Part shown: positions 4,963 to 48,861 of the stretch, piece after piece | Layout of the letters: the number at the start of each line of letters is the position of its first letter | How positions within the stretch are numbered: position 1 is the first letter of the stretch | Sequence record: PQ471460.1 | Origin: Escherichia phage vB_EcoM_JE01 | Length of the DNA stretch: 64,000 nucleotides | Direction: 5' to 3' (one strand) | Made by a program: the position numbers and the translations under genes | The notes under the pieces: model-generated | The model's database searches: none | The model's input: the letters and a program-made list of their open reading frames with translations, nothing else | What the model was told of the DNA's origin: nothing

Positions 4963-5299
4963 AGATGATTTAGATTTAGATCTAGAAATTATCGACGAAT
5001 CCCCCTCTTCGGAGGGGGAAGAAGAAAGAAAAGAACGCCTTTTTAATGAATCTCTTAAGATAATTAAATCTGCCATGGAAAATGTTATCCAGGAGATTGT
5101 CATTAAACTAGAAGACGGTTCTACACACATTGTGTATGTGACAAAATTAGATTGGGTTGATGGAAAAGTCGTAATGGACTTTGCTGTTCTTGACCAAGAA
5201 AGAAAAGCTGAGTTAGCTCCTCATGTAGAAAAATGTATTACAATGCAACTACAAGATGCATTTAATAAAAGGTCAAAGAAAAAATTTAAATTCTTTTAA
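4955..5299 (+). CDS. 40: gp40-position protein (head assembly), 114 aa
   Basis: ATG at 4955 overlapping uvsX stop; located between uvsX and 41 as in T4; acidic N-terminus. Confidence 0.5.
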   Translation: MNKDDLDLDLEIIDESPSSEGEEERKERLFNESLKIIKSAMENVIQEIVIKLEDGSTHIVYVTKLDWVDGKVVMDFAVLDQERKAELAPHVEKCITMQLQDAFNKRSKKKFKFF

Positions 5300-11468: not shown

Positions 11469-11474
11469 ATTCAA

Positions 11475-11498
11475 GGACTCCTTCGGGAGTCCTTTTTT
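11475..11498 (+). terminator. Intrinsic terminator after soc
   Basis: GGACTCC-TTCG-GGAGTCC hairpin followed by TTTTTT. Confidence 0.7.
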
Positions 11499-30023: not shown

Positions 30024-30039
30024 GGCGTCTTCGGACGCC
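30024..30039 (+). other. Intercistronic RNA hairpin with UUCG tetraloop
   Basis: GGCGTC-TTCG-GACGCC, no U-tract. Confidence 0.5.
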
Positions 30040-30051
30040 AGTGAGGAAAAT

Positions 30052-30207
30052 ATGAATATTGCAAAATTATTAGGAGTTATTTCATTTATTTGTTGGATAG
30101 TAGCATGTGTTTTAACTATCTGTATAGATGCTAGCAGTGTGTTTTCGCAAGCTTTAGCTCAGGGTATGTGTGCATATTTAACATTTGCGTTGTTATCTAA
30201 TGATTAA
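30052..30207 (+). CDS. ac: Ac acriflavine-sensitivity membrane protein (51 aa)
   Basis: 51-aa hydrophobic ORF between ndd and 52, same size and position as T4 ac; GAGGAAAA RBS. Confidence 0.6.
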   Translation: MNIAKLLGVISFICWIVACVLTICIDASSVFSQALAQGMCAYLTFALLSND

Positions 30208-31819: not shown

Positions 31820-31825
31820 ATTTTA

Positions 31826-31851
31826 GGGAGAGCCGAGGCTCTCCCTTTTTT
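31826..31851 (+). terminator. Intrinsic terminator
   Basis: GGGAGAGC-CGAG-GCTCTCCC hairpin followed by TTTTTT. Confidence 0.75.
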
Positions 31852-33963: not shown

Positions 33964-34242
33964 ATGATTATTGATTCTCAATCTGTGGTTCAATATACAA
34001 TCAAAATTGATATTCTAGAAAAGCTATATAAGTTTCTACCAAATTTATACCACTCAATTGTTAATGAATTAGTTGAAGAACTACATCTTGAGAATAATGA
34101 TTTCTTGGTTGGAACTTATAAAGACCTCTCAAAAGCAGGATATTTTTACGTAATTCCAGCTCCAGGAAAAAGTATTGATGATGTATTAAAAACTATAATG
34201 ATTTACGTCCATGATTACGAAATTGAAGATTATTTCGAATGA
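33964..34242 (+). CDS. arn: Arn anti-restriction protein candidate (92 aa, acidic)
   Basis: 92-aa acidic ORF adjacent to asiA, as T4 arn. Confidence 0.5.
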   Translation: MIIDSQSVVQYTIKIDILEKLYKFLPNLYHSIVNELVEELHLENNDFLVGTYKDLSKAGYFYVIPAPGKSIDDVLKTIMIYVHDYEIEDYFE

Positions 34243-34391
34243 GTCATAATCTTGAAAAGGTAATCGAGCATAATGTAGCTCAGGAACGTGAGTCGTTCAA
34301 GGAATTCGTAGAAAAAATTTTTGAAGAAAATAACACAGACCAGTTTACAAATCAAACGTCTGATGATATTATAATAAAGTCAACTAATTGA
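34239..34391 (+). CDS. Hypothetical protein (50 aa)
   Basis: ATGA overlap with arn stop; below ORF-track cutoff. Confidence 0.3.
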   Translation: MSHNLEKVIEHNVAQERESFKEFVEKIFEENNTDQFTNQTSDDIIIKSTN

Positions 34392-34403
34392 GTGGTATAG
34401 TTA

Positions 34404-34676
34404 ATGAATAAAAACATTGATACAGTTCGTGAAATTATTACTGTTGCGTCTATTTTGATTAAATTTTCCAGAGAAGATATTGTTGAGAATCGTGCTAATT
34501 TTATCGCATTTCTGAATGAGATTGGAGTAACGCATGAAGGTAGAAAGTTAAATCAGAATTCATTCCGTAAAATTGTTTCTGAATTAACCCAAGAAGATAA
34601 GAAAACCCTCATCGACGAATTCAACGAGGGTTTTGAGGGTGTATATCGATATCTAGAGATGTATACAAACAAATAA
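34404..34676 (+). CDS. asiA: AsiA anti-sigma70 factor (90 aa)
   Basis: 90 aa; matches T4 AsiA as I recall it (MNKNIDTVREIITVASILIKFSREDIVENRANFIAFLNEIG...). Confidence 0.85.
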   Translation: MNKNIDTVREIITVASILIKFSREDIVENRANFIAFLNEIGVTHEGRKLNQNSFRKIVSELTQEDKKTLIDEFNEGFEGVYRYLEMYTNK

Positions 34677-35333
34677 TTATTTAGCCCTTCCTAATATTCT
34701 GGCCGCCTGAGAACATATTGATTCAAGGCGGTCATTACTTATATGATCATTTCTATACCAGTACATGGTTATCGTTCCAGCATAGATATTATCCAAATTA
34801 AAATATGGACAACTGTACATGTAGTTTATTTCGGGAGTAGGCTTTTTAGTTGGTAAAAAAGCAAATTTTGAGTTGGAATAATAATGACGTCCATTTAAAT
34901 GAACTGTATATTCATCCATAGTTTTATCAACAGGATATCCTCCAAGTGATTTTTCGCTTATTGTTGAAGGTAATTTTCCTTCATATGCTATAATATCAAC
35001 AAAATAGTTTAAGTTTTTAGGGCGGAAAGAATACACCGCACTAAAGTCTGCCTCAGATGATATATGAACTATCTGGAGTTGTTCCAGGGCGACAGATTCA
35101 AAGCGTGCATTTCTTTCCTTTTCAATAATTTCACTGTATGTTTCATACTTTGATTGCTTATAGTACTCAAAGAAACTATCTCCCCTATACCAAACAATCG
35201 CCATTATAAACAAAAGAATTACGACAGCTACTCGGGAAGCAAGAACCTTCCCGGTAGCGTTATCTTTGAACAAGCGATCTAGAACACCCAACAGAATATC
35301 AGAGGGCGAAAATGATATTCTAGGTGCTGCCAT
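34677..35333 (-). CDS. t: Holin T (218 aa)
   Basis: 218 aa, single N-terminal TM then large periplasmic domain; convergent with asiA, downstream of gene 38. Confidence 0.85.
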   Translation of the reverse strand: MAAPRISFSPSDILLGVLDRLFKDNATGKVLASRVAVVILLFIMAIVWYRGDSFFEYYKQSKYETYSEIIEKERNARFESVALEQLQIVHISSEADFSAVYSFRPKNLNYFVDIIAYEGKLPSTISEKSLGGYPVDKTMDEYTVHLNGRHYYSNSKFAFLPTKKPTPEINYMYSCPYFNLDNIYAGTITMYWYRNDHISNDRLESICSQAARILGRAK

Positions 35334-35363
35334 AGACCCTCCTTTTAAGGATATTTATTCAAA

Positions 35364-36143
35364 TTATACTCTTGGACCATATATTGCTCCAACGTTTTGC
35401 CATGTCGGTGTAGACCCTATGACGGCATAACCAGCAGCACCACCGTTATATTCTGTACCGTTCCCATGAATATTACATCTACCTCCTGCTGAGCCAACTT
35501 CACCGCCATTCCCGCCTGTATATACCCAAAGAGACCCCTCACCGACAGATCCTGCACCCGGAGCGGAAATGGTGCCAGCGGTTGCACCAGCACCCATATG
35601 AGAGGAAGACCCGCCAGCACCGAATGGGCGACCACCACCACCACCAAATGATAGTCTACCGTAGTTACCGCCGCCGCCACCGCCACCGCCGCCTGCAATA
35701 GCTCCACCATTATTAATTCTTAGTCTCCCACCAATATCGTTTTGAATACAATGACCTCCAGCTGAGCCAGGACTATTGCTACCGCCATTACCGCCACGTC
35801 CATACATCGTTACGCCGTGTATATTCAACTGAACATATTCATTCGGTGTATCTCCGTACATGAAGAATAAAGGAACATCTTTAGAATATGATACTAAATC
35901 TCCAGTGATATTAAACACTATAGGTGTACTACCTGCCTCAAAACATCTATCTCGGAACCATTGACCATTGAAGTTATGGTCTGCTCCAAGCGTGTGAATA
36001 ATTTCTCTTGAGCGACCTGCAAATTGACTCATCCAGCAAGGAACACCCAATCTTAATTGACCAGCTGCTTGACTCATCCAGCGCTGACCCGTTTCATTTA
36101 CGGCTGAACTTCCAATCCAGCCAGGAACTCCAACTACTGCCAT
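35364..36143 (-). CDS. 38: gp38 tail-fibre adhesin, T2 type (259 aa) with glycine-rich motifs
   Basis: Poly-Gly tracts ([29 protein letters not shown]) characteristic of T2-like gp38 adhesins rather than the shorter T4 gp38 chaperone. Confidence 0.8.
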
Positions 36144-36158
36144 AATTTATACTCCAAA

Positions 36159-36173
36159 GGGGGCATTTCCCCC
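36159..36173 (-). other. GC hairpin between gene 37 stop and gene 38 start
   Basis: GGGGG-AAATG-CCCCC on the minus-strand transcript, immediately upstream of gene 38 RBS. Confidence 0.5.
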
Positions 36174-36179
36174 TTGTTG

Positions 36180-39100
36180 TTAGAATTTAAAATATTTACT
36201 AATTTTGCGAGCAATTTTAGTAAAGAGAGGCGTTTTCAATTCTTTAATTTCTTCACTCATTTCCTGAATAGCCTTAATTAAAAGCGCGTTCACAGCAGAG
36301 TTAGAAATTGTTAAAATTTCTTCCGGGTTATCCTGAGATCCGACACTAGAAGTGCTAACAGCTTCCGGTAATACTTCTTGCAAATCCTGTGCGATAATAC
36401 CAATCTCATGGCCGATAACTTCGCGGTCAGAAAGAGATTTAACTTTATCATAGGTTTTAACTTTGAGTTTATTTACCTTATCCACCGCATTTTCTTCGTA
36501 ATCTTCAACATTAATTTTCAGACGACGATCGGAACGAATATAAACATCGTTAAAGTTTCCGTTACCAGTGGCATGAAATTCTCCACTTGCATGGAATTGA
36601 TAATCAGCACCCTGAACATGAAGAACCGCTGCCGCAGTATTATTACTATCACCGGGACAATGAACGTCCATAGCAGCGATGTAGTTACGCCCCCAATCAA
36701 CCGCTTTCCAAATAGCATGAGCACTATCAACGCTTTGTTGACAGTCAACCAACAAACCAGCAGGTCGGTCTCTCCATGCAACATATGCACCACCAGAAAC
36801 CTCACCACGGATAAGTCCTTGATCTGCGGCATAAGGAACACGCCCTTCCAGTTGAATCATTGCGCCCTTAAAGTGATGACTAAATGGTCCACCGTGGTTA
36901 TTGCGAATATGTAAAATACCCTCATCTGTAGCCCAGATAACAGCCTTTTCTGCCTCGCTATCATCTCTAAACCAGACGCGGCGAGCACCAGCAGAGTTTT
37001 TGATAGTAATCCCGGAAGGTCCATGCACAGTAAAAGCGCCAGCAACATCAAACATCAAACTGTTATCTGTCCTACGTTCAGTATAGAAGTGATAACCTTT
37101 GGAATCACCGACTTCCATCACTGCCGAGCGACCAACTTCTGAATTTCCCCAATTATTGATATGGAATTGTTCAGAGCTATTATTCATCTGATTTAGGTAT
37201 AATGCACCATCAGTAAATGTTTCGCCAAAGAAACGAGTTTTAATTGCACCTGTCGCTAAAGTACGTTCAGTGGAAAAATGAGCGCCTTGACTATCTTCTA
37301 ACTGGATGATGTTATCACGAGCATTATTACTATCACCCCAATGGTTAAATTTAAAATAATCTCGTGATCCTAAACGTCCGGCGTCAAAAGTCATCACGCC
37401 TTTCATGTTAATATCACCGTCGACCAGAACATTATCCGGGAAGTTAACAGTACCGTCTTGATTAAAACGAGACGTATGGCCTTGTGAACCATCTTCTTTC
37501 AGATGATGAATAACGAATGTACCTGAACTAATCTCAGTACCTAAAGACCAAACGGCTTTACCATTTAAAAACTTCTGTTTAACAATAGGATAATATTTGC
37601 TTATAGCATCATCATCAATTTCCTGGAAAATAGGAGCCGCTTGAGCATATTGAATGTCATAACCACCAGCGCCTGCGCCATGACCAGTAAATTTAATATA
37701 GCCGTTTGCTGCGAACGTATTGTAACTTGATTGTAAATCTGGAATAGTAACTTTACCGGTATCTAAAGCCATACTAAACGGGCGAAGTGGACCGATATCG
37801 CCATGTTTACCTTCACCATAAGCAGTTGGAATAATATGAAGACTTCCTTCTGAACGTCTAAAAATGGCTCCATAATCTGCGTTCCAAATACGAAGAGCAT
37901 TCACTGCTCCAGATGAAATTTCACCTGTTGTGTGAACTCCTCTATCTCCAGCAGTAACACCAGATGATTCAAATGAACCATTAACGTTCATTTCTACTTC
38001 GCCAGTAGTAAGTCTTTGAATATAGCTCATCCAGCTAGTTGCATCAGAAATTTCCATAATGTTTTTACGGATACCTCCGCTTGGATCAACAAACGTATTA
38101 CCCCAAACTTTAATATCCATATTATCAACCGAGCTGTATCCTGTTGTGTTACCTCTAAACATCAGCGTAGAAGAATTATTACGACCATCAATATTAACAG
38201 AACCACCAATAACGTCAATATTACCAGGAGTGACTAACAAACCGCCGTGAGTATTAATGTTTGTAGTACCTTTACCACGGAAATAGTGATGATAATTACC
38301 GCCTTGGTAATATCCTAAAAGAGTTTGACCATCTCCAAACGCGTTATTATCGTGATATGTCACGACAGTAGCAAGAGCATAGTTTTCAGTTGGAGGAGTC
38401 GTTAAATCGGTTCCGTTAGTAGAATATCCAGCTACAAATTTTCTTAGGCTAGTTGTTTCACTAGGACTAAATAAAAATGTTTTCGTTCCATTATTGACGC
38501 TGAAATAATATCCATCCTGATGCCATTTAAATCCAGTATCATTATCTCCAAGAGAAATTGAAGCAGTCCCTAATTCAGAATATCCTTTAGAGCCACCTGG
38601 AAGACCTATAGAAACAGAATGGCCTGCTTTCAATCCACCAGACCAGGTAAACGACCAAAGATAGGCATCTAACCCGTCACCAGCGTACCAGGTTATCCCG
38701 TCGTTATCTTTAACTTCATGGAATATACCAGATCCTACGGCATTTCGCATAACACGGAGGTGGTTAATAGCCGTTTCGCTTTCTGCCAATGGAGTGTTAT
38801 TTGCTAATGAATAGATATCATAATCGCCTGTCTTCTTCCCATTTGTAATAACTTTATCGGTCAGAATTTGTGGAGACGAAATAGATTTCCATGCTGATAC
38901 TTCAGGTGAAGTAAATAGGCCACTACCTGAAAATGCATAGGTGCTTTCACTTCCTGCAGCATAATCTTGAACCCTGATATTAAGTACTTGTGTAGTTAAT
39001 CCATCATTAGCCGGGGCATAAATGATTCCGCGTTCGCGGTTATTGCCATCGAAAAAACGAACATGTGATGTACCTGAACTTTTTGTAATAAGTTCTCCAC

Positions 39101-39422
39101 CCTCAGTCATAATCTGCCCGGCAGCAATAATATCGCGAGTTACTCGAGCAATACCAGTTAAATTAAAATTACCTGTCTGAGTGAAAGTGCCATTTAAAGT
39201 ATAATCACCAGTTTGATTATAGTTTCCTATATGAATAACATTCCCGTCAATGCTACCACCTTTAGCAAAACCAAGATCAATGATATTTCCTTGGTCGTCT
39301 TTAGTAAAAAGTACGCGGTCTTTTAAGTTTATAGCCAATTCACCTTCGGCTAATACTGAAGCGGCAGGACGTGCTCCTGCAGTTTTGCTTCTTTTAAATT
39401 GTATTTGTTTTAAAGTAGCCAT
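36180..39422 (-). CDS. 37: Long tail fibre distal subunit gp37 (1080 aa)
   Basis: 1080-aa Gly/Ser/Thr-rich fibre protein downstream of 36 and upstream of 38. Confidence 0.85.
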   Translation of the reverse strand: MATLKQIQFKRSKTAGARPAASVLAEGELAINLKDRVLFTKDDQGNIIDLGFAKGGSIDGNVIHIGNYNQTGDYTLNGTFTQTGNFNLTGIARVTRDIIAAGQIMTEGGELITKSSGTSHVRFFDGNNRERGIIYAPANDGLTTQVLNIRVQDYAAGSESTYAFSGSGLFTSPEVSAWKSISSPQILTDKVITNGKKTGDYDIYSLANNTPLAESETAINHLRVMRNAVGSGIFHEVKDNDGITWYAGDGLDAYLWSFTWSGGLKAGHSVSIGLPGGSKGYSELGTASISLGDNDTGFKWHQDGYYFSVNNGTKTFLFSPSETTSLRKFVAGYSTNGTDLTTPPTENYALATVVTYHDNNAFGDGQTLLGYYQGGNYHHYFRGKGTTNINTHGGLLVTPGNIDVIGGSVNIDGRNNSSTLMFRGNTTGYSSVDNMDIKVWGNTFVDPSGGIRKNIMEISDATSWMSYIQRLTTGEVEMNVNGSFESSGVTAGDRGVHTTGEISSGAVNALRIWNADYGAIFRRSEGSLHIIPTAYGEGKHGDIGPLRPFSMALDTGKVTIPDLQSSYNTFAANGYIKFTGHGAGAGGYDIQYAQAAPIFQEIDDDAISKYYPIVKQKFLNGKAVWSLGTEISSGTFVIHHLKEDGSQGHTSRFNQDGTVNFPDNVLVDGDINMKGVMTFDAGRLGSRDYFKFNHWGDSNNARDNIIQLEDSQGAHFSTERTLATGAIKTRFFGETFTDGALYLNQMNNSSEQFHINNWGNSEVGRSAVMEVGDSKGYHFYTERRTDNSLMFDVAGAFTVHGPSGITIKNSAGARRVWFRDDSEAEKAVIWATDEGILHIRNNHGGPFSHHFKGAMIQLEGRVPYAADQGLIRGEVSGGAYVAWRDRPAGLLVDCQQSVDSAHAIWKAVDWGRNYIAAMDVHCPGDSNNTAAAVLHVQGADYQFHASGEFHATGNGNFNDVYIRSDRRLKINVEDYEENAVDKVNKLKVKTYDKVKSLSDREVIGHEIGIIAQDLQEVLPEAVSTSSVGSQDNPEEILTISNSAVNALLIKAIQEMSEEIKELKTPLFTKIARKISKYFKF

Positions 39423-39430
39423 AAGTCCTC

Positions 39431-40108
39431 TTAATAATAGCCGAAATCTTGAACAGAATCCTTAATAACAATTTGATCAAATCGTGGAACATGTGAGGGT
39501 TGAGATGCAGGATTCTGTGAAAAAAGGTTTGGCGCAGTTAAATTTCCTGTCATAGTATCTCCAGAGCGTAATACCCTAGAGTTTGCGTTTACTGTAACAA
39601 TATTTATTGCTCCATCAACATAATCTTTACGAGTAAGATCGTTAACCGCAACAGGTGCAGCCATGTCTGAACGAACTTGTCCAGAGGCGTAAACACCGCC
39701 TTTAGTATTAATTGTGCCTGTACGAGTATTAATGGATATCGTATATCCTGAATTACCTAATGAAGATTTAAATCCAACACCATACCAAGAAACGATATCT
39801 AGGTTGTTTGCTGTAAAATCGGCCCCATCATCAACTCCAGGAAAAATACCATTAATGTTCCCTGTTTGAATTACGCCGTCTTTAGAAAACGGGATTTGTA
39901 CACCTGCATTAAATGATACTTTGTTTAAATATGTGCCACCTGATGCTTTAGAAACGAAATCGTTATCAGCAGCTTGTGGTTTATTGTATTCTGAATATAT
40001 TTTAAATGATTTATAGAGTACATCGTCACCGGCTGGATTCAATGGAAAATTTCCTTGATGCCAAATGACAGAGCCTCCTGTTGTTGAACCTACTTTTAAA
40101 TCAGCCAT
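39431..40108 (-). CDS. 36: Long tail fibre hinge protein gp36 (225 aa)
   Basis: Size and position between 35 and 37. Confidence 0.8.
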   Translation of the reverse strand: MADLKVGSTTGGSVIWHQGNFPLNPAGDDVLYKSFKIYSEYNKPQAADNDFVSKASGGTYLNKVSFNAGVQIPFSKDGVIQTGNINGIFPGVDDGADFTANNLDIVSWYGVGFKSSLGNSGYTISINTRTGTINTKGGVYASGQVRSDMAAPVAVNDLTRKDYVDGAINIVTVNANSRVLRSGDTMTGNLTAPNLFSQNPASQPSHVPRFDQIVIKDSVQDFGYY

Positions 40109-40131
40109 TGTATGCCCCTTTATTTTAATAG

Positions 40132-40139
40132 TATTTATA
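40132..40139 (-). promoter_or_regulatory. Late promoter TATAAATA upstream of gene 36
   Basis: Exact TATAAATA on minus strand 24 nt upstream of gene 36 ATG. Confidence 0.6.
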
Positions 40140-40140
40140 A

Positions 40141-40165
40141 AGAAAAAGGGAACCCGAAGGCTCCC
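40141..40165 (-). terminator. Intrinsic terminator after gene 35 (minus strand)
   Basis: Minus-strand GGGAGCC-TTCG-GGTTCCC hairpin followed by TTTTTCT. Confidence 0.6.
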
Positions 40166-40170
40166 TCAAT

Positions 40171-41289
40171 TTATACTTCTCTAAATTCTTGCCCAAACAC
40201 TTTACCAGTTTTAGACGATGCTTGTGTAGGAAGTACCATTATATCCGGAGGTGAAGCAGATTCACAGATATAATTAACACGAATACCGTTGACGCCAAAT
40301 TCAGCAGGTTTTGAAATGCCGCCATTTCTTGATACTTCAGAAAAGCTTAAATTTCTCATGCCTCCTTGACCTGCTTGGGCAGTTCTTTGTGCATATATCG
40401 TAAATCCTACCGCATTTTCAGGAACAACTACATAGTCTTCCTTTAATTCCCATGACCCAGCTTGACCAGTAAACTCAGCATATGTTGAAGAAATATATCC
40501 ATCCGATTCATTATAAAATCTAATGGATATATTCGTAGTTCCAAGAGCAAGTAAATCGGCATCAGCATATAGTTGTGCTTTAAGATAAAGAACATCGCCT
40601 GGAATTAAATTATAATCAGATAATTTACTTATAGCAGCTGAAGTTGGTAGACGTGCAATTTCGTTATTAGTTCCACCAACCGCTGACATAAACTGCTCAA
40701 CGCTTTCATATGTTCTTCTTGGAAACCCGGTAGCTCCGACGTCTTCTAAACTGTCAAATACAACATCTAAAACAGTTTGATAATCATCTGTGCTTTTTCT
40801 ATTGCTTAATTTAACATGCTCTAATGCGATAGCTCTTTTAGAAGAAGTATAAAAAGCAGCATATGATACGTCGAATCTTGACAATACAGAGTCAGATGGA
40901 AAAGCAGACGTTCCAGCGGCTCTTAGCCAAGATGCTACTTCAGGAGGAAAATTAACCTTTCCGTTAGTTAATATAGCAACAATTCGATTATTCGTCAAAG
41001 AATTCATGAAACTAACAAAGGCAGCTGATGTAGTATCATTTGAAGTCGAAAAAGCATATGACTTACTATCAACTAATGCTCCGGTGGAAGGGTCAAAAAC
41101 TCTTAAATGAAGGCCTGCGCTAAATGTTTGACTTCCTACAGGATTATCCTGAAATTTAACGTATGGTCCTTCTGCAGTAGAAAGCGGGCAAGAACCCGCT
41201 ATACTTATTTTGTATCTTACTGAATTGCTTTCCGATAAAAATGGCGTTTGGACATATCCTTGTCCAAACTCTGCCATAAATTTTTCCAT
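40171..41289 (-). CDS. 35: Long tail fibre proximal connector gp35 (372 aa)
   Basis: 372 aa as T4 gp35; synteny. Confidence 0.8.
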   Translation of the reverse strand: MEKFMAEFGQGYVQTPFLSESNSVRYKISIAGSCPLSTAEGPYVKFQDNPVGSQTFSAGLHLRVFDPSTGALVDSKSYAFSTSNDTTSAAFVSFMNSLTNNRIVAILTNGKVNFPPEVASWLRAAGTSAFPSDSVLSRFDVSYAAFYTSSKRAIALEHVKLSNRKSTDDYQTVLDVVFDSLEDVGATGFPRRTYESVEQFMSAVGGTNNEIARLPTSAAISKLSDYNLIPGDVLYLKAQLYADADLLALGTTNISIRFYNESDGYISSTYAEFTGQAGSWELKEDYVVVPENAVGFTIYAQRTAQAGQGGMRNLSFSEVSRNGGISKPAEFGVNGIRVNYICESASPPDIMVLPTQASSKTGKVFGQEFREV

Positions 41290-41297
41290 AATACCTC

Positions 41298-44200
41298 TTA
41301 TTCAACCCATTCAAATTTAACCGTTTTATTCACTGGGTCAGGAACAATGCGAACATTACCAATTCGTAAGAAATCACGAATAGTAAGATTACCCATTATA
41401 GCATTATCAGATGGTAAAGCACCAATATCAGATGGCTGAGGAGGGTTACCCCCATCAAATACCTGAACAAAACTTGACCAAGAGTTTTTGGTTTTCTGCC
41501 ATGTGCGCGTCCAGCGAGTGGTACGTGCTTCTGGCGTCGTTGGATAAGTAATCCAATCTTGGTAAAGCGAATCAAGTGTATTACCAAACTGAGTCAATGT
41601 ACCAGGAGATTTAACTTCTTCGCCACGTTCTAAGTATGGAAGTCCAGTCACTTCATTAGTTTTTTCAACCATTTTAAAATAACCCGGGAACTGGTTATAA
41701 GTGGCTGAATCGTTAATATCGATTGACCAGAATCCGACAGTATCAGATGTTGGTGCGCGGGTATATAAATCAGATGTTTTAGTGCCCTGAGAACGAATTC
41801 TCGAGTTAACAGTCAAACCGCCTGAATTTATAGTAGCACCTTTGGCAATAATTAAGCTTTCGCCAATCGTTACTTGGCCAGATGCATTATTAATAGCTAA
41901 AGGACGTAATCCATTAAATCCACCAGTCTGATCACCTGATGCAGTAAACATAAAATTCGTTACTGATCCATCATTGCGAACAATGAAACCATAATTTCCG
42001 TTAATAGCACGGAAAGCATTTGCACTTCGAGAAATAATTTCACCAGTTGCAGTGACTGAATTACCAAATGTTGCTACACCATTTGCATTCAATGTTCCTG
42101 AAGCATTAACATTTATAGGTGTTACTGTACCATTGATATTAAATGTTATATTTCCAGCTTTATTGCGCTGAGAATAAAAGTGATTAGACGTTTCATCACC
42201 AACTTCAAATACAGTCGAACGTGTTGTATCTGATTCCCCACTAAATTGATTACCCCACACTCTAATAGTCACCGTCTGTGCTTGGTTAGTTCCAGTTTGA
42301 GGTCCTTTCTCAAAAATCAGATGAGTTTCTGTTCCAGTATTAGAAATAGTTAGTACACTATTTGCCGAAACTGAACCACCAAACGTAGCAGTACTAGATG
42401 ATACAAGAGGGGCACTCAGATTCGTTTGTTGGGTTAAGGTTAGTGAACCATTAACCGTCTGCGCAATGTCCCTACGAATGAACTGAGATGAATCTAGACC
42501 ATCCAATAAATTACTATCTACAGCTTTTGCTTTTAATGGCAAATAATTTGCTAATACACGGTTTAATTCATATGGTGATACTGCATAACTATTTTTCTCA
42601 TACAGTTCTAAATCTTGGGTAGAACCGACTGTATCATTACCAACGAATGTAATTGAACCAGATGAAGTTTTAACAAAACCTCTTATCGCAGTAGTAGCTG
42701 CCCAGGTAGGTTCACTCTGCACAATCCATTTTAAATTTTTTGGAGATACAGCAGTATTTGCTGACGTTCCAGTCACAGTTTCAGACTGAGTTGCAACTTT
42801 AATAACACCTTCTTGTGCTTCAGTAGATTTAGTACCTAAAAGCTTTTTAGGAGTTATTAAAACATTATCTAATGTTCCTGTAGCAGCTTCGACTTGTGTA
42901 GCTACACGAAGTGTACCACGCTGTGTCTCATTTGCTTCAAGAATATTAAGGGTATAATGGTCCCAGAGAGTTCCTGATTCAACTAATCCAGATAGAGCAA
43001 CAACAGAAGTACGATCAGTACTATTAAATCTGGTTTTAATTTTTAATGGTGTAGAGATACGAGTATCGTCGACGCCTGCGTCGAATTCAACCTGTGTAGC
43101 AATTTCAGCTATACCACTTAAACTTTCAGTTGCTCTACGGTCATTTAAAGTTTTAGGAGTGACTGCACGAGTATAATCAGTTCCTGTATTAACTTCGCTT
43201 TGCGTAGCAATTTCAATTAAACCAATTCTTCCATCAGTTGATGTCTTTTTATGTAACGTTTCTGGCGTTACAACCGCATTTGCCCATCCTTCCTGACTTT
43301 GTCCAGCAATTACTTCACTTTCAACTGCTAAAATTACTGCACCTTGTTGGGTTGGAGTAGCTTTATACTGATCCAAAGCTTTAGGTGAAACAACTAAATT
43401 ATCAGTGTTTTTATTATAAACATTCGTACCATTTAATTCACGGCTAGAAGCTGGAGTAGCACCTGCAGTAGATACAAAGGTTACAATACCAGATAATGAT
43501 TCAGAACCTTGACGAGCTTGAAGCTTTTTAGGAGTGATGATTGTAGTATCATCGGTTCCTGCATTAGTTTCTTGCTGCGTAGCAATTTCAGCAACACCTC
43601 TGCGAGTTTCAGTAGCTGTTCTTTCATTCAGCTTTTTAGGAGTGATGATAATATCATCAGCAAAAGAGAATGTAGTATCCTGGTTAACTTGAGCAGTTGT
43701 TGCTATTCTTGCGATACCTCTACGAGTTTCTGTAGCAGTACGGTTAGCTAACGTTTCTGGAGTAATTGCCAATTCTTTTTGTGGAGAATTTTCTAAATCA
43801 GCATTAGCTTGAGCTTGTGTAGCTAAAGCAATTACGCCTAATCTTGCTCTAGTAGAATCATTTAAAGAATCTACTCTTTCTACGGTTGGAACGTTTTGCT
43901 GTACAACCCAATATTTTCCATCAGAATCTTCTATATAAGCAAGCTCCAAAACTGGAACATAATTAGTTTCACCGTTAAAAACTAATTCTTGAACTGTTAC
44001 CCATTCAGCTTCAGGCGGATATTCTGAGCGTTTTGGGAATTGCAACAATTGAACTGAAGAAGCAATTTTATCTTCACCTGCAGCTTTGATTTTAACTGTT
44101 TGTCCTTTTCTCATGTAATTCATGGAAATTTTGACAGTATCACCAACAGAAATATCAGTCGGAAGCTGAAGTTCAATTGTTTGGGTTGTTCCATTATTCG

Positions 44201-45167
44201 CGCCAAATACCATGACTTCTTCATTTGGACGAATATTAGAATTAGTTGTTATAATGCGTAAACGTGCTTTACTATCCCCGTCAAACAATCTCCACAATTT
44301 CTCATTATCATCAAACATCAAGAAACCGTCAATCGATGTACGGCCTTCAATGGAATGAGTTCCAACTTCTTGTACTGAAGTTGTTTCATCATATGTAGTA
44401 ACAATTGTGTGATAAAGAGGATTTAATTTATCCAAATCAACGAAATTAATAATATCGCCATGATTGGCAAATCTTGGAAGTTTAATATTAATTGCTGATG
44501 CAGAAGTAAATCTACGTACGATAAAATCGTTTGATTGCGCCTGATAGAGACTCGCAGGCGTTACAACTACAGCTTCTCTGCTATAATCAGCAACGTACAT
44601 TTGCCACAGACGATTACTAAAAATTAAAACTATCTGTGATTTTGGATGAGTCATTAGTACTGATCGTACTTGCTGACCTCTAAAATTTACAATGCTTTGT
44701 ACCGGAGCTGTAATTAAAACTTGATTAACTCCAGGTTTTCCTCCAATATCTTGGAGAACGATAGTATCACCGTCAATTGGGGTAGATGGTAAAGTAAATG
44801 TAATGTCATTACCAGCTGCAGTATCAACTGAAATTGATTCGCCTGATTTTAATTGATAAGGTCCTGATGAAACAGTTGTCCAGTTTGCATCAGTACGTAA
44901 TGCTCTCCAGCGTACGCTATTAAAAGCTCCTGCTGGTTTTGGAATATCATTTATAGCAGCCCAAAAGCGGTTATCATAAATGATTACAAAATCTTTTAAA
45001 TATCCACGAGTTGGATCGTATTGTTGAACTGTGTTTTCTTGAATTAAGTAATCAACGTTGACACCGTCAGTTCCTACGGTACGATCAGCTAAAGCTACGT
45101 TGATTATTTTATCGCCACCTGCGTCCAGACCGTCTTCTGCTCTGAACTTTCTTTTAATCTCGGCCAT
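41298..45167 (-). CDS. 34: Long tail fibre proximal subunit gp34 (1289 aa)
   Basis: 1289 aa as T4 gp34; repetitive fibre sequence. Confidence 0.85.
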   Translation of the reverse strand: MAEIKRKFRAEDGLDAGGDKIINVALADRTVGTDGVNVDYLIQENTVQQYDPTRGYLKDFVIIYDNRFWAAINDIPKPAGAFNSVRWRALRTDANWTTVSSGPYQLKSGESISVDTAAGNDITFTLPSTPIDGDTIVLQDIGGKPGVNQVLITAPVQSIVNFRGQQVRSVLMTHPKSQIVLIFSNRLWQMYVADYSREAVVVTPASLYQAQSNDFIVRRFTSASAINIKLPRFANHGDIINFVDLDKLNPLYHTIVTTYDETTSVQEVGTHSIEGRTSIDGFLMFDDNEKLWRLFDGDSKARLRIITTNSNIRPNEEVMVFGANNGTTQTIELQLPTDISVGDTVKISMNYMRKGQTVKIKAAGEDKIASSVQLLQFPKRSEYPPEAEWVTVQELVFNGETNYVPVLELAYIEDSDGKYWVVQQNVPTVERVDSLNDSTRARLGVIALATQAQANADLENSPQKELAITPETLANRTATETRRGIARIATTAQVNQDTTFSFADDIIITPKKLNERTATETRRGVAEIATQQETNAGTDDTTIITPKKLQARQGSESLSGIVTFVSTAGATPASSRELNGTNVYNKNTDNLVVSPKALDQYKATPTQQGAVILAVESEVIAGQSQEGWANAVVTPETLHKKTSTDGRIGLIEIATQSEVNTGTDYTRAVTPKTLNDRRATESLSGIAEIATQVEFDAGVDDTRISTPLKIKTRFNSTDRTSVVALSGLVESGTLWDHYTLNILEANETQRGTLRVATQVEAATGTLDNVLITPKKLLGTKSTEAQEGVIKVATQSETVTGTSANTAVSPKNLKWIVQSEPTWAATTAIRGFVKTSSGSITFVGNDTVGSTQDLELYEKNSYAVSPYELNRVLANYLPLKAKAVDSNLLDGLDSSQFIRRDIAQTVNGSLTLTQQTNLSAPLVSSSTATFGGSVSANSVLTISNTGTETHLIFEKGPQTGTNQAQTVTIRVWGNQFSGESDTTRSTVFEVGDETSNHFYSQRNKAGNITFNINGTVTPINVNASGTLNANGVATFGNSVTATGEIISRSANAFRAINGNYGFIVRNDGSVTNFMFTASGDQTGGFNGLRPLAINNASGQVTIGESLIIAKGATINSGGLTVNSRIRSQGTKTSDLYTRAPTSDTVGFWSIDINDSATYNQFPGYFKMVEKTNEVTGLPYLERGEEVKSPGTLTQFGNTLDSLYQDWITYPTTPEARTTRWTRTWQKTKNSWSSFVQVFDGGNPPQPSDIGALPSDNAIMGNLTIRDFLRIGNVRIVPDPVNKTVKFEWVE

Positions 45168-45201: not shown

Positions 45202-45209
45202 TATTTATA
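45202..45209 (-). promoter_or_regulatory. Late promoter TATAAATA upstream of gene 34
   Basis: Exact TATAAATA on minus strand 35 nt upstream of gene 34 ATG. Confidence 0.6.
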
Positions 45210-48463: not shown

Positions 48464-48488
48464 GGGGACCCTAGAGGTCCCCTTTTTT
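48464..48488 (+). terminator. Intrinsic terminator after gene 32
   Basis: GGGGACC-CTAGA-GGTCCCC hairpin followed by TTTTTT. Confidence 0.75.
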
Positions 48489-48817: not shown

Positions 48818-48824
48818 TTATTAA

Positions 48825-48840
48825 GGGGCTATCAAGCCCC
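48825..48840 (+). other. Intercistronic hairpin
   Basis: GGGGCT-ATCA-AGCCCC. Confidence 0.45.
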
Positions 48841-48861
48841 TATTAAAATGAGGAAAACACA

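Follow-up and report, generated by a model that had tools for sequence, protein, structure and literature searches.

The receptor-recognition module formed by the long-tail-fibre protein gp37 and the adhesin gp38 is well described, and its structure and mechanism are known from two crystal structures and from swap experiments. In phage S16 the three conserved tryptophans of the gp38 attachment domain plug into the gp37 trimer (PMC6851490). On the other hand, the protein named gp38 in phage T4, a chaperone of 183 residues encoded at the same place after gene 37, is unrelated in sequence; it is an assembly factor and not a component of the virion, and the tip of T4 gp37 itself binds the receptor (PMC6851490). 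Here we analyse genes 37 and 38 (35,364 to 39,422) in a stretch of 64,000 nucleotides from Escherichia phage vB_EcoM_JE01 (PQ471460.1), which is called the window below. The locus is very probably a standard two-gene receptor-recognition module, i.e. a tail-fibre tip of the Tequatrovirus type and of an already characterized kind, and its adhesin is predicted with high confidence to use OmpA of E. coli as the receptor. The parts of the module that carry the argument are the following:

36180-39422, minus strand: gene 37, long tail fibre distal subunit, 1080 residues, with the TAA stop codon at 36180-36182
35364-36143, minus strand: gene 38, receptor-recognizing adhesin, an open reading frame of 259 residues
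36018-36143, minus strand: N-terminal attachment domain of gp38, residues 1-42, with W9, W22 and W37, which by analogy would dock on the tip of the gp37 trimer
35367-35798, minus strand: specificity domain of gp38, residues 116-259, with glycine-rich polyglycine-II sandwich motifs and variable loops, delimited from conservation, alignments and the fold match
35667-35693, minus strand: nine-glycine run G151-G159, the central polyglycine helix, equivalent to helix 3 of S16, 151-GGGGGGGG-158 (PMC6851490)

For several close relatives of this adhesin the receptor has been determined experimentally. E. coli BL21(DE3) deprived of ompA is not infected by phage vB_EcoM_IME340 and adsorbs it poorly, complementation restores both infection and adsorption, and mutants resistant to IME340 carry lesions in ompA (PMC6499177). 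Transfer of gp38 from phage T4_ev240 (EV240) into the Tsx-dependent phage CM8, in which only the part of gp38 from HVS2 onwards was exchanged, led to a complete switch to OmpA (bioRxiv 10.64898/2026.04.02.716166). Phages FL20 and FL12 possess OmpA-dependent adhesins of "type 2", which accept only some of the natural variants of the OmpA loops (PMC12032242). According to tblastn, gp38 of the window is 100% identical at the amino acid level to the gp38 proteins of IME340 (MH051916), vB_EcoM_SP1 and LYE-01; this protein is therefore already public in other phage genomes, and the receptor is already known experimentally for a phage that carries an identical protein. At the nucleotide level gene 38 is 99.4% identical to that of IME340, and all five differences are synonymous. 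It is because the phage with the identical gp38 uses OmpA, and because of the EV240 swap and the OmpA dependence of FL20 and FL12, that we assign this receptor with high confidence.

The wider comparison agrees with this assignment. The overall identity of gp38 is 96.1% to EV240, 93% to FL20, 91% to FL12 and 78% to FL18 (the FL18 record is truncated at the N-terminus), and in the specificity domain it amounts to 100% for IME340, 93.8% for both EV240 and FL12, 88% for FL20 and 85% for FL18. The protein clusters with these five adhesins and possesses the same short HVS2 as EV240, FL12, FL18 and FL20, all of proven OmpA dependence (EV240 by the gene swap). The insertion of the YYSPF type, found in HVS2 of the T6/Bas37 group, is absent from gp38 of the window and from all its close OmpA-proven relatives.

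The data support the placement of the 259-residue protein among the gp38 adhesins of the T2/T6/S16 type rather than among the T4-type chaperones, as predicted from both its sequence and its modelled fold. The protein matches the whole Pfam model GP38 (PF05268) with residues 47-259 (E-value 5e-69, 232.9 bits at a cut-off of 25) and Gp38_N (PF21721) with residues 1-42 (1.1e-20, 73.8 bits); at E <= 0.01 the Pfam scan of gp38 returned these two adhesin families only and no T4-type gp38 chaperone, and each of the 196 homologues found in the database belongs to the adhesin family. A phmmer search of the PDB retrieved the receptor-binding domain of PP01 gp38 (9V85, 5e-78) and S16 gp38 (6F45_D, 3e-53, over the full length). 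The AlphaFold2 monomer model, built with 54 homologues, has a mean pLDDT (predicted local distance difference test) of 90.4 and a pTM (predicted template modelling score) of 0.81, and Foldseek matched it in the PDB to 9V85 and 6F45_D alone (E-values of 1e-22 to 1e-25, template modelling scores of 0.82-0.87, root-mean-square deviations of 2.1-2.6 A), the next match having E > 2. Comparison of the model with the solved structures thus yields the three-domain fold with a polyglycine-II sandwich, and the attachment domain, the beta-helix and the sandwich are all shared with the S16 gp37-gp38 tip (6F45) and with PP01. Both S16 and PP01 gp38 bind OmpC; their loop sequences differ from those of the window, and loops A and B of PP01 are longer.

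Glycine makes up 25% of gp38 and 35% of residues 116-259, with runs of nine (G151-G159) and five (G167-G171) glycines and ten GG pairs. In an alignment of 115 homologues the glycine motifs, which include GRGGnGG, GGGGGRPFG, PGaG and GnGG..G..G, are kept and the segments between them vary, insertions being concentrated after residues 124, 161 and 225 (most often after 161). W9 and W22 are invariant in this alignment and in a second one of 11 sequences; for W37, near-invariance holds in the second one only. The original prediction, made from the letters of the window and its open reading frames, had described a 259-residue gp38 with polyglycine motifs between variable segments on a gp37 of 1080 residues, and the glycine runs, the profile of homologues and the open reading frame at 36180-39422 bear it out. 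It had also set this adhesin apart from the chaperone gp38 of T4, a distinction also drawn in the paper on the S16 structure (PMC6851490); alignment with the T4-type chaperone family together with a lack of variable loops, named there as the outcome that would speak against it, was looked for and not found.

The label "T2-type" given in that prediction holds for the architecture and not for the sequence: T2 gp38 belongs to the same family, and it differs in the N-terminal domain and in the type of the adjacent hairpin, the proteins being only about 50% identical (50.7% pairwise and 48.9% in the multiple alignment). An alignment of the variable segments with the adhesins of T2, T6, Ox2 and K3 had been proposed; among the classical phages we compared T2, T6, Ox2 and M1, leaving K3 out. 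The N-terminal domain is 90-98% identical to those of T6, Ox2 and M1, and the identity of the specificity domain is 80% to the Tsx binder T6, the nearest of the four, 67% to the OmpA binder M1, 47% to T2 and 45% to the OmpA binder Ox2. The T6 protein, of the same family, has the HVS2 insertion and the Tsx receptor; the gp38 of the window lacks that insertion. A side observation from the aligned specificity domains is that the "type 2" adhesins of FL12, FL20 and EV240 lie near the T6/Tsx adhesins (about 80%), with the "type 1" adhesins of Ox2 and FL08 distant (45-50%), whereas a sentence in PMC12032242 states the reverse, with type 1 nearer to the Tsx binders.

Published gp38 swaps and point mutants place porin specificity in the C-terminal loops, in accord with the original prediction that the variable loops set the host range. 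We located these loops by transferring the definitions made for PP01 (PMC12892980) through the phmmer alignment to 9V85:

35769-35783, minus strand: loop A, residues 121-125, GSNSP, from PP01 loop A W119-I124
35649-35669, minus strand: loop B, or HVS2, residues 159-165, GNYGRLS, short and without the YYSPF-type insertion of the T6/Tsx adhesins
35592-35609, minus strand: loop C, residues 179-184, SSSHMG
35523-35549, minus strand: loop D, residues 199-207, SVGEGSLWV, with W206-V207 in place of the S-A of the other OmpA-proven relatives
35451-35474, minus strand: loop E, residues 224-231, NIHGNGTE

Ten substitutions (T112A, Y161R, G184S, A189S, S193Y, W206S, V207A, I225T, N228T and N233D) separate this gp38 from that of EV240. 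Most of them fall into variable segments. Both alleles use OmpA, and the substitutions may adjust the range of OmpA variants that each recognizes.

Several points weigh against the assignment as a whole. The use of OmpA was proven with the complete IME340 phage on BL21(DE3) and not with isolated gp38, and gp37 of IME340 is only 81% identical to that of the window, differing just upstream of the cleavage site. The loop residues Y161, G184, W206, V207, I225 and N228 differ from those of EV240, FL20 and FL12, and a single loop substitution can switch the porin, as in the case of Q206L, which turns OmpF use into OmpW use (bioRxiv 10.64898/2026.04.02.716166). Since the loops differ and single changes can switch specificity, the OmpA variants accepted or the co-receptors used could differ from those of the three phages just named. 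Finally, self-cleavage of gp37, the 3:1 stoichiometry and co-transcription of the genes would follow here by homology. One could thus imagine that in its natural host the adhesin of this phage binds another porin instead of OmpA, or OmpA together with a second receptor, by virtue of allele-specific loop residues. Such a scenario would draw on the six of the ten EV240 differences that lie in the distal loops B-E, on the specificity domain being nearer to that of T6 than to those of the classical OmpA binders M1 and Ox2, and on the ease of porin switching by single substitutions in the gp38 family, in which PST-like adhesins use both Tsx and OmpA (bioRxiv 10.64898/2026.04.02.716166; PMC3157838). 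However, the IME340 protein shows no amino acid difference from that of the window and its phage depends strictly on OmpA, adsorption being lost with the gene and restored by complementation (PMC6499177), and the YYSPF insertion of T6/Tsx adhesins is missing here. We regard this alternative as very improbable and retain OmpA as the receptor.

The second component of the module, gp37, is recognized by its S74 domain and by the gene order 37-38-t, the latter being also annotated in IME340, EV240, Pu-Krd-SF1, T2 and Ox2. Its features are:

gp37 residues 453-550 (gene 37, minus strand): Gp34_trimer, a gp34-like trimerization segment according to Pfam
gp37 residues 964-1022 (gene 37, minus strand): Peptidase_S74 (Pfam, 1e-14), an intramolecular chaperone
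36180-36533, minus strand: S74 chaperone part of gene 37 with the stop codon, residues 964-1080, starting from SDRRLK and predicted to be self-cleaved after trimerization

In the PDB, gp37 matches T4 gp34 and S16 gp37 (6F45_A), and its alignment with the gp37 construct of S16 runs across SDRR(L/I)K, the S16 motif being SSDRRIKK; the junction ...NDVYIR|SDRRLK is kept in relatives. Since SDRR begins at residue 964, the released fragment is expected to comprise 117 residues. By analogy with the family and with the S16 structure, gp37 would cleave itself and form a 3:1 complex with gp38.

In comparisons with four relatives, gp37 is 93.7% identical to that of Pu-Krd-SF1 (the best match), 81% to IME340, 47% to EV240 and 35% to T2, and the identity changes abruptly from block to block; judged from these alignments, known blocks have been combined here into a new mosaic allele, as is normal for gene 37. 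IME340 shares with the window the identical gp38, the hairpin between the two genes, the order 37-38-t and the length of gp37 (1080 residues); its gp37 differs, with blocks of 38-73% identity that include the stretch of 60 residues preceding the cleavage site. Since an identical gp38 rides on such a divergent gp37, the gp38 allele travels independently of gp37. Along gp37 residues from about 870 to 960 (36540-36810, minus strand) the identity to IME340 is 38-60%, although the gp38 proteins are identical. This part of gp37, directly before the cleavage site, should form the docking tip for gp38; either docking tolerates much variation in gp37, or it relies on the last conserved residues (...NDVYIR). 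Two Krischvirus loci, those of FL20 (L001) and kvi (L003), encode a gp38 93% identical to that of the window; at about positions 230-300 of these loci, gene 37 ends in the same codons as here (...AAATATTTTAAATTCTAA), and the hairpin is present in a variant form, GGGGGC-AAC-GCCCCC. Evidently, the adhesin was passed between genera in one block with the 3' end of gene 37; modular exchange of fibres is well described (PMC3157838).

Taken together, the following course of events, in which we have high confidence as a whole, appears to be the best explanation of the locus. Genes 36, 37 and 38, probably with t, would be transcribed late as a single mRNA. In gp37, the C-terminal S74 chaperone would assist trimerization and then, as in the rest of its family, cleave itself off at about Ser964, and one gp38 monomer would dock its N-terminal domain of three helices and three tryptophans on the exposed tip of the gp37 trimer. 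The C-terminal polyglycine-II sandwich of gp38 would display five short variable loops, and these presumably bind E. coli OmpA as the primary, reversible receptor, so that the choice of receptor would be seated in the C-terminal half of gp38.

Between the two genes the window carries a short hairpin, which the original prediction had placed at 36159-36173, between the stop codon of gene 37 and the ribosome-binding site of gene 38. These positions read exactly GGGGG-CATTT-CCCCC, and the flanking AA/TT extends the stem to 7 bp; sequence, position and folding energy all confirm the hairpin:

36157-36175, minus strand: GC hairpin with a perfect stem of 7 bp, in the RNA sense AAGGGGG-AAAUG-CCCCCUU
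36152-36155, minus strand: Shine-Dalgarno sequence of gene 38, GGAG, 8 nucleotides before the ATG at 36143 and 1 nucleotide past the hairpin

Written as RNA, the junction is UAA-CAAC-AAGGGGG-AAAUG-CCCCCUU-U-GGAG-UAUAAAUU-AUG, the hairpin starting 4 nucleotides past the stop codon of gene 37. Its folding energy is -13.3 kcal/mol, a stability reached by none of 200 shuffled sequences (z = -3.0). The slot between stop codon and Shine-Dalgarno sequence is filled by a hairpin in T2, Ox2, FL12 and most loci in which gene 38 directly follows gene 37 (many IMG/VR loci among them), and the stems differ, for instance GGGGC/GCCCC, AGAGGGC-UUCG-GCCCUCU, GAGGGGC-UUCG-GCCCCUU and AGGGCC-UUCG-GGCCCU; on the other hand, no hairpin is found at four loci where the 3' end of the preceding gene contains the Shine-Dalgarno sequence of gene 38. 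Across 17 distinct junctions the six core pairs are paired in 94% of cases, compared with 83% in shuffled alignments. Two of the six show compensatory changes (GC to CG in seven sequences and GC to AU in three), and the covariation score was reached by none of 500 shuffles and was lower in slid registers. In the MAFFT alignment of the junctions the stem of the window type is one column off the register of the UUCG types, and for this reason only six core pairs were counted, which makes these figures conservative. Because independent lineages are few and the register is imperfect, the comparison offers moderate, not strong, evidence for selection on the structure of the hairpin across lineages. 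A scan of 34000-41000 with Rfam 15 at E <= 1 returned no match to a covariance model, and our literature search for a described hairpin between genes 37 and 38 found none.

The window contains 17 perfect GC-rich hairpins with stems of at least 6 bp, several of which have UUCG loops; nine of them are intergenic according to a crude map of open reading frames (about 7% of the sequence being non-coding), and at least four more lie just past the end of a gene. Examples other than the one considered here are found at 5000-5019, 11473-11494, 30024-30039, 31825-31846, 48464-48482 and 48824-48841. The layout of a hairpin followed by a Shine-Dalgarno sequence recurs at 30024-30039 and 48824-48841, before the open reading frames that start at 30052 and 48862. 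Tuerk et al. are said to have described, in 1988, stable intercistronic hairpins of T-even phages, of the C(UUCG)G type. The hairpin of the window resembles this type in the short GC stem, the small loop and the site between cistrons; its loop in this lineage is AAAUG rather than UUCG, which occupies the same position in T2, FL12 and many relatives. Because the same arrangement recurs in the window, we place the 37/38 hairpin in this general intercistronic class, and it would most likely contribute to the stability of the mRNA segment, to the framing of the ribosome-binding site of gene 38, or to both, rather than act as a dedicated switch.

The original prediction had suggested that the hairpin modulates the translation of gene 38, which we consider unlikely. 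In its most specific form this idea would have the Shine-Dalgarno sequence paired with UUCUAA at the end of gene 37 and opened by the ribosome that terminates there, so that the output of gp38 would be tied to, and kept below, that of gp37 (3:1 in the fibre). The hairpin lies close enough to the stop codon, 4 nucleotides, to be reached by the terminating ribosome, and relatives keep both its position and, by compensatory changes, its pairing. The minimum free energy fold of 96 nucleotides does pair UUGGAGU with AUUCUAA, stacked on the hairpin; this fold is, however, unremarkable (z = -1.31), and the extension that occludes the Shine-Dalgarno sequence consists of AU and GU pairs and displays no covariation, since its sequence is identical wherever it is present. 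In a context of 130 nucleotides the predicted probability that the Shine-Dalgarno sequence is unpaired rises from 0.02 to 0.23 upon disruption of the hairpin in silico, and locus L008 of the same lineage behaves alike (0.16 to 0.69). However, in the contexts of T2 and of the loci L010, L012 and L028 the Shine-Dalgarno sequence is predicted to be largely unpaired (0.45-0.98), and its predicted accessibility falls upon disruption of the hairpin in three of the four (T2, L012 and L028). Unrelated genes of the window are also preceded by similar hairpins. Thus, control of this specific kind also appears doubtful, and occlusion of the Shine-Dalgarno sequence as a general mechanism can be rejected, as it is predicted in the lineage of the window and L008 only and not in T2, L010, L012 or L028. 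An equally tentative thought is that the order of stop codon, hairpin and Shine-Dalgarno sequence, conserved in Tequatrovirus, Mosigvirus and other gp38 phages with stems that covary, is a dedicated device that sets the ratio of gp38 to gp37 synthesis. It could work by translational coupling or insulation, or as a barrier to mRNA decay that gives gene 37 and genes 38-t different half-lives; if this were true, the element would be more than a generic hairpin.

It is less probable still, and indeed improbable, that the hairpin acts on transcription, either as a weak attenuator of the late 36-37-38 mRNA or, on the plus strand, as a terminator of early antisense transcripts. The early genes (plus strand) and the late fibre genes (minus strand) converge at asiA/t, so that early transcripts from the side of asiA could enter t, 38 and 37 and would there read the hairpin followed by TTGTTGTT; a terminator scan indeed calls the plus strand at 36159-36172, with a T-rich tail. 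In relatives the sequence 5' of the hairpin is A-rich in the sense direction, which gives a T-rich antisense tail; the T2/FL12 type, for example, reads GCCCTCTTTTAC. However, this A-rich stretch largely consists of TAA stop codons in an AT-rich genome, and transcription in the antisense direction would need to traverse t and the whole of gene 38 before reaching the hairpin. On the sense strand just three U follow the stem and no terminator is called there, the scan calling the plus strand only; because of this short UUU tail a sense-strand intrinsic terminator is rejected. The preferred reading thus remains a hairpin of the general T-even intercistronic class.

The module lies in the canonical T-even block of long-tail-fibre genes, all of them on the minus strand of the window, the first 25 kb of which are 95-97% identical to many Tequatrovirus genomes, which marks the source as a coliphage related to T4. 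Its neighbours and the late-promoter boxes are:

41298-45167, minus strand: gene 34, an open reading frame of 1289 residues
40171-41289, minus strand: gene 35, an open reading frame of 372 residues
39431-40108, minus strand: gene 36, an open reading frame of 225 residues (Pfam Phage_T4_gp36)
34677-35333, minus strand: gene t (holin), directly 3' of gene 38 (Phage_holin_T, 8e-118)
45202-45209, minus strand: late-promoter box TATAAATA before gene 34
40132-40139, minus strand: late-promoter box TATAAATA upstream of gene 36, the only one between genes 35 and t that matches exactly

We take TATAAATA to be the late-promoter consensus of T4. Because the only exact box lies before gene 36, genes 36, 37 and 38, probably together with t, would form one late mRNA; no exact TATAAATA occurs between genes 37 and 38, on which account the hairpin would be internal to this mRNA and a separate late promoter for gene 38 is rejected. 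The spacer between the Shine-Dalgarno sequence and the ATG (36144-36151, minus strand) reads TATAAATT and matches the box in 7 of 8 positions; this candidate was also discarded, being absent in other lineages and implying a transcript start inside gene 38. In the spacer between genes 38 and t (35341-35356, minus strand) there is AATAAATA, again a 7/8 match, which could be a late promoter for t.

Two further elements were observed in the same region. The gap between genes 35 and 36 contains (40146-40167, minus strand) a hairpin of 9 bp with a UUCG loop (GAGGGAGCC-UUCG-GGUUCCCUU), followed by UUUCUUU, then by the TATAAATA box, and then by the Shine-Dalgarno sequence and ATG of gene 36; it looks like a terminator-promoter pair that would divide the fibre genes into the units 34-35 and 36-37-38(-t). 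About 45 nucleotides past the stop codon of gene t, at 34602-34634 (minus strand), an inverted repeat of 14 bp (AAAACCCTCGTTGA-ATTCG-TCGATGAGGGTTTT) with a pyrimidine-rich tail lies inside the convergent asiA frame of the other strand, and is a candidate for the end of the late fibre/holin transcript within an early gene.

The locus illustrates known principles, namely that gp38 moves separately from gp37 and crosses genera, and nothing in it challenges the current understanding of the module; the conserved placement of the hairpin before gene 38 is the only loose end of some interest. In this context, the value of the analysis is practical: sequence alone is enough for a confident call of OmpA as the receptor, which is useful in the design of phage cocktails and helps to predict the routes to resistance, i.e. 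loss of ompA or variation in the OmpA loops.

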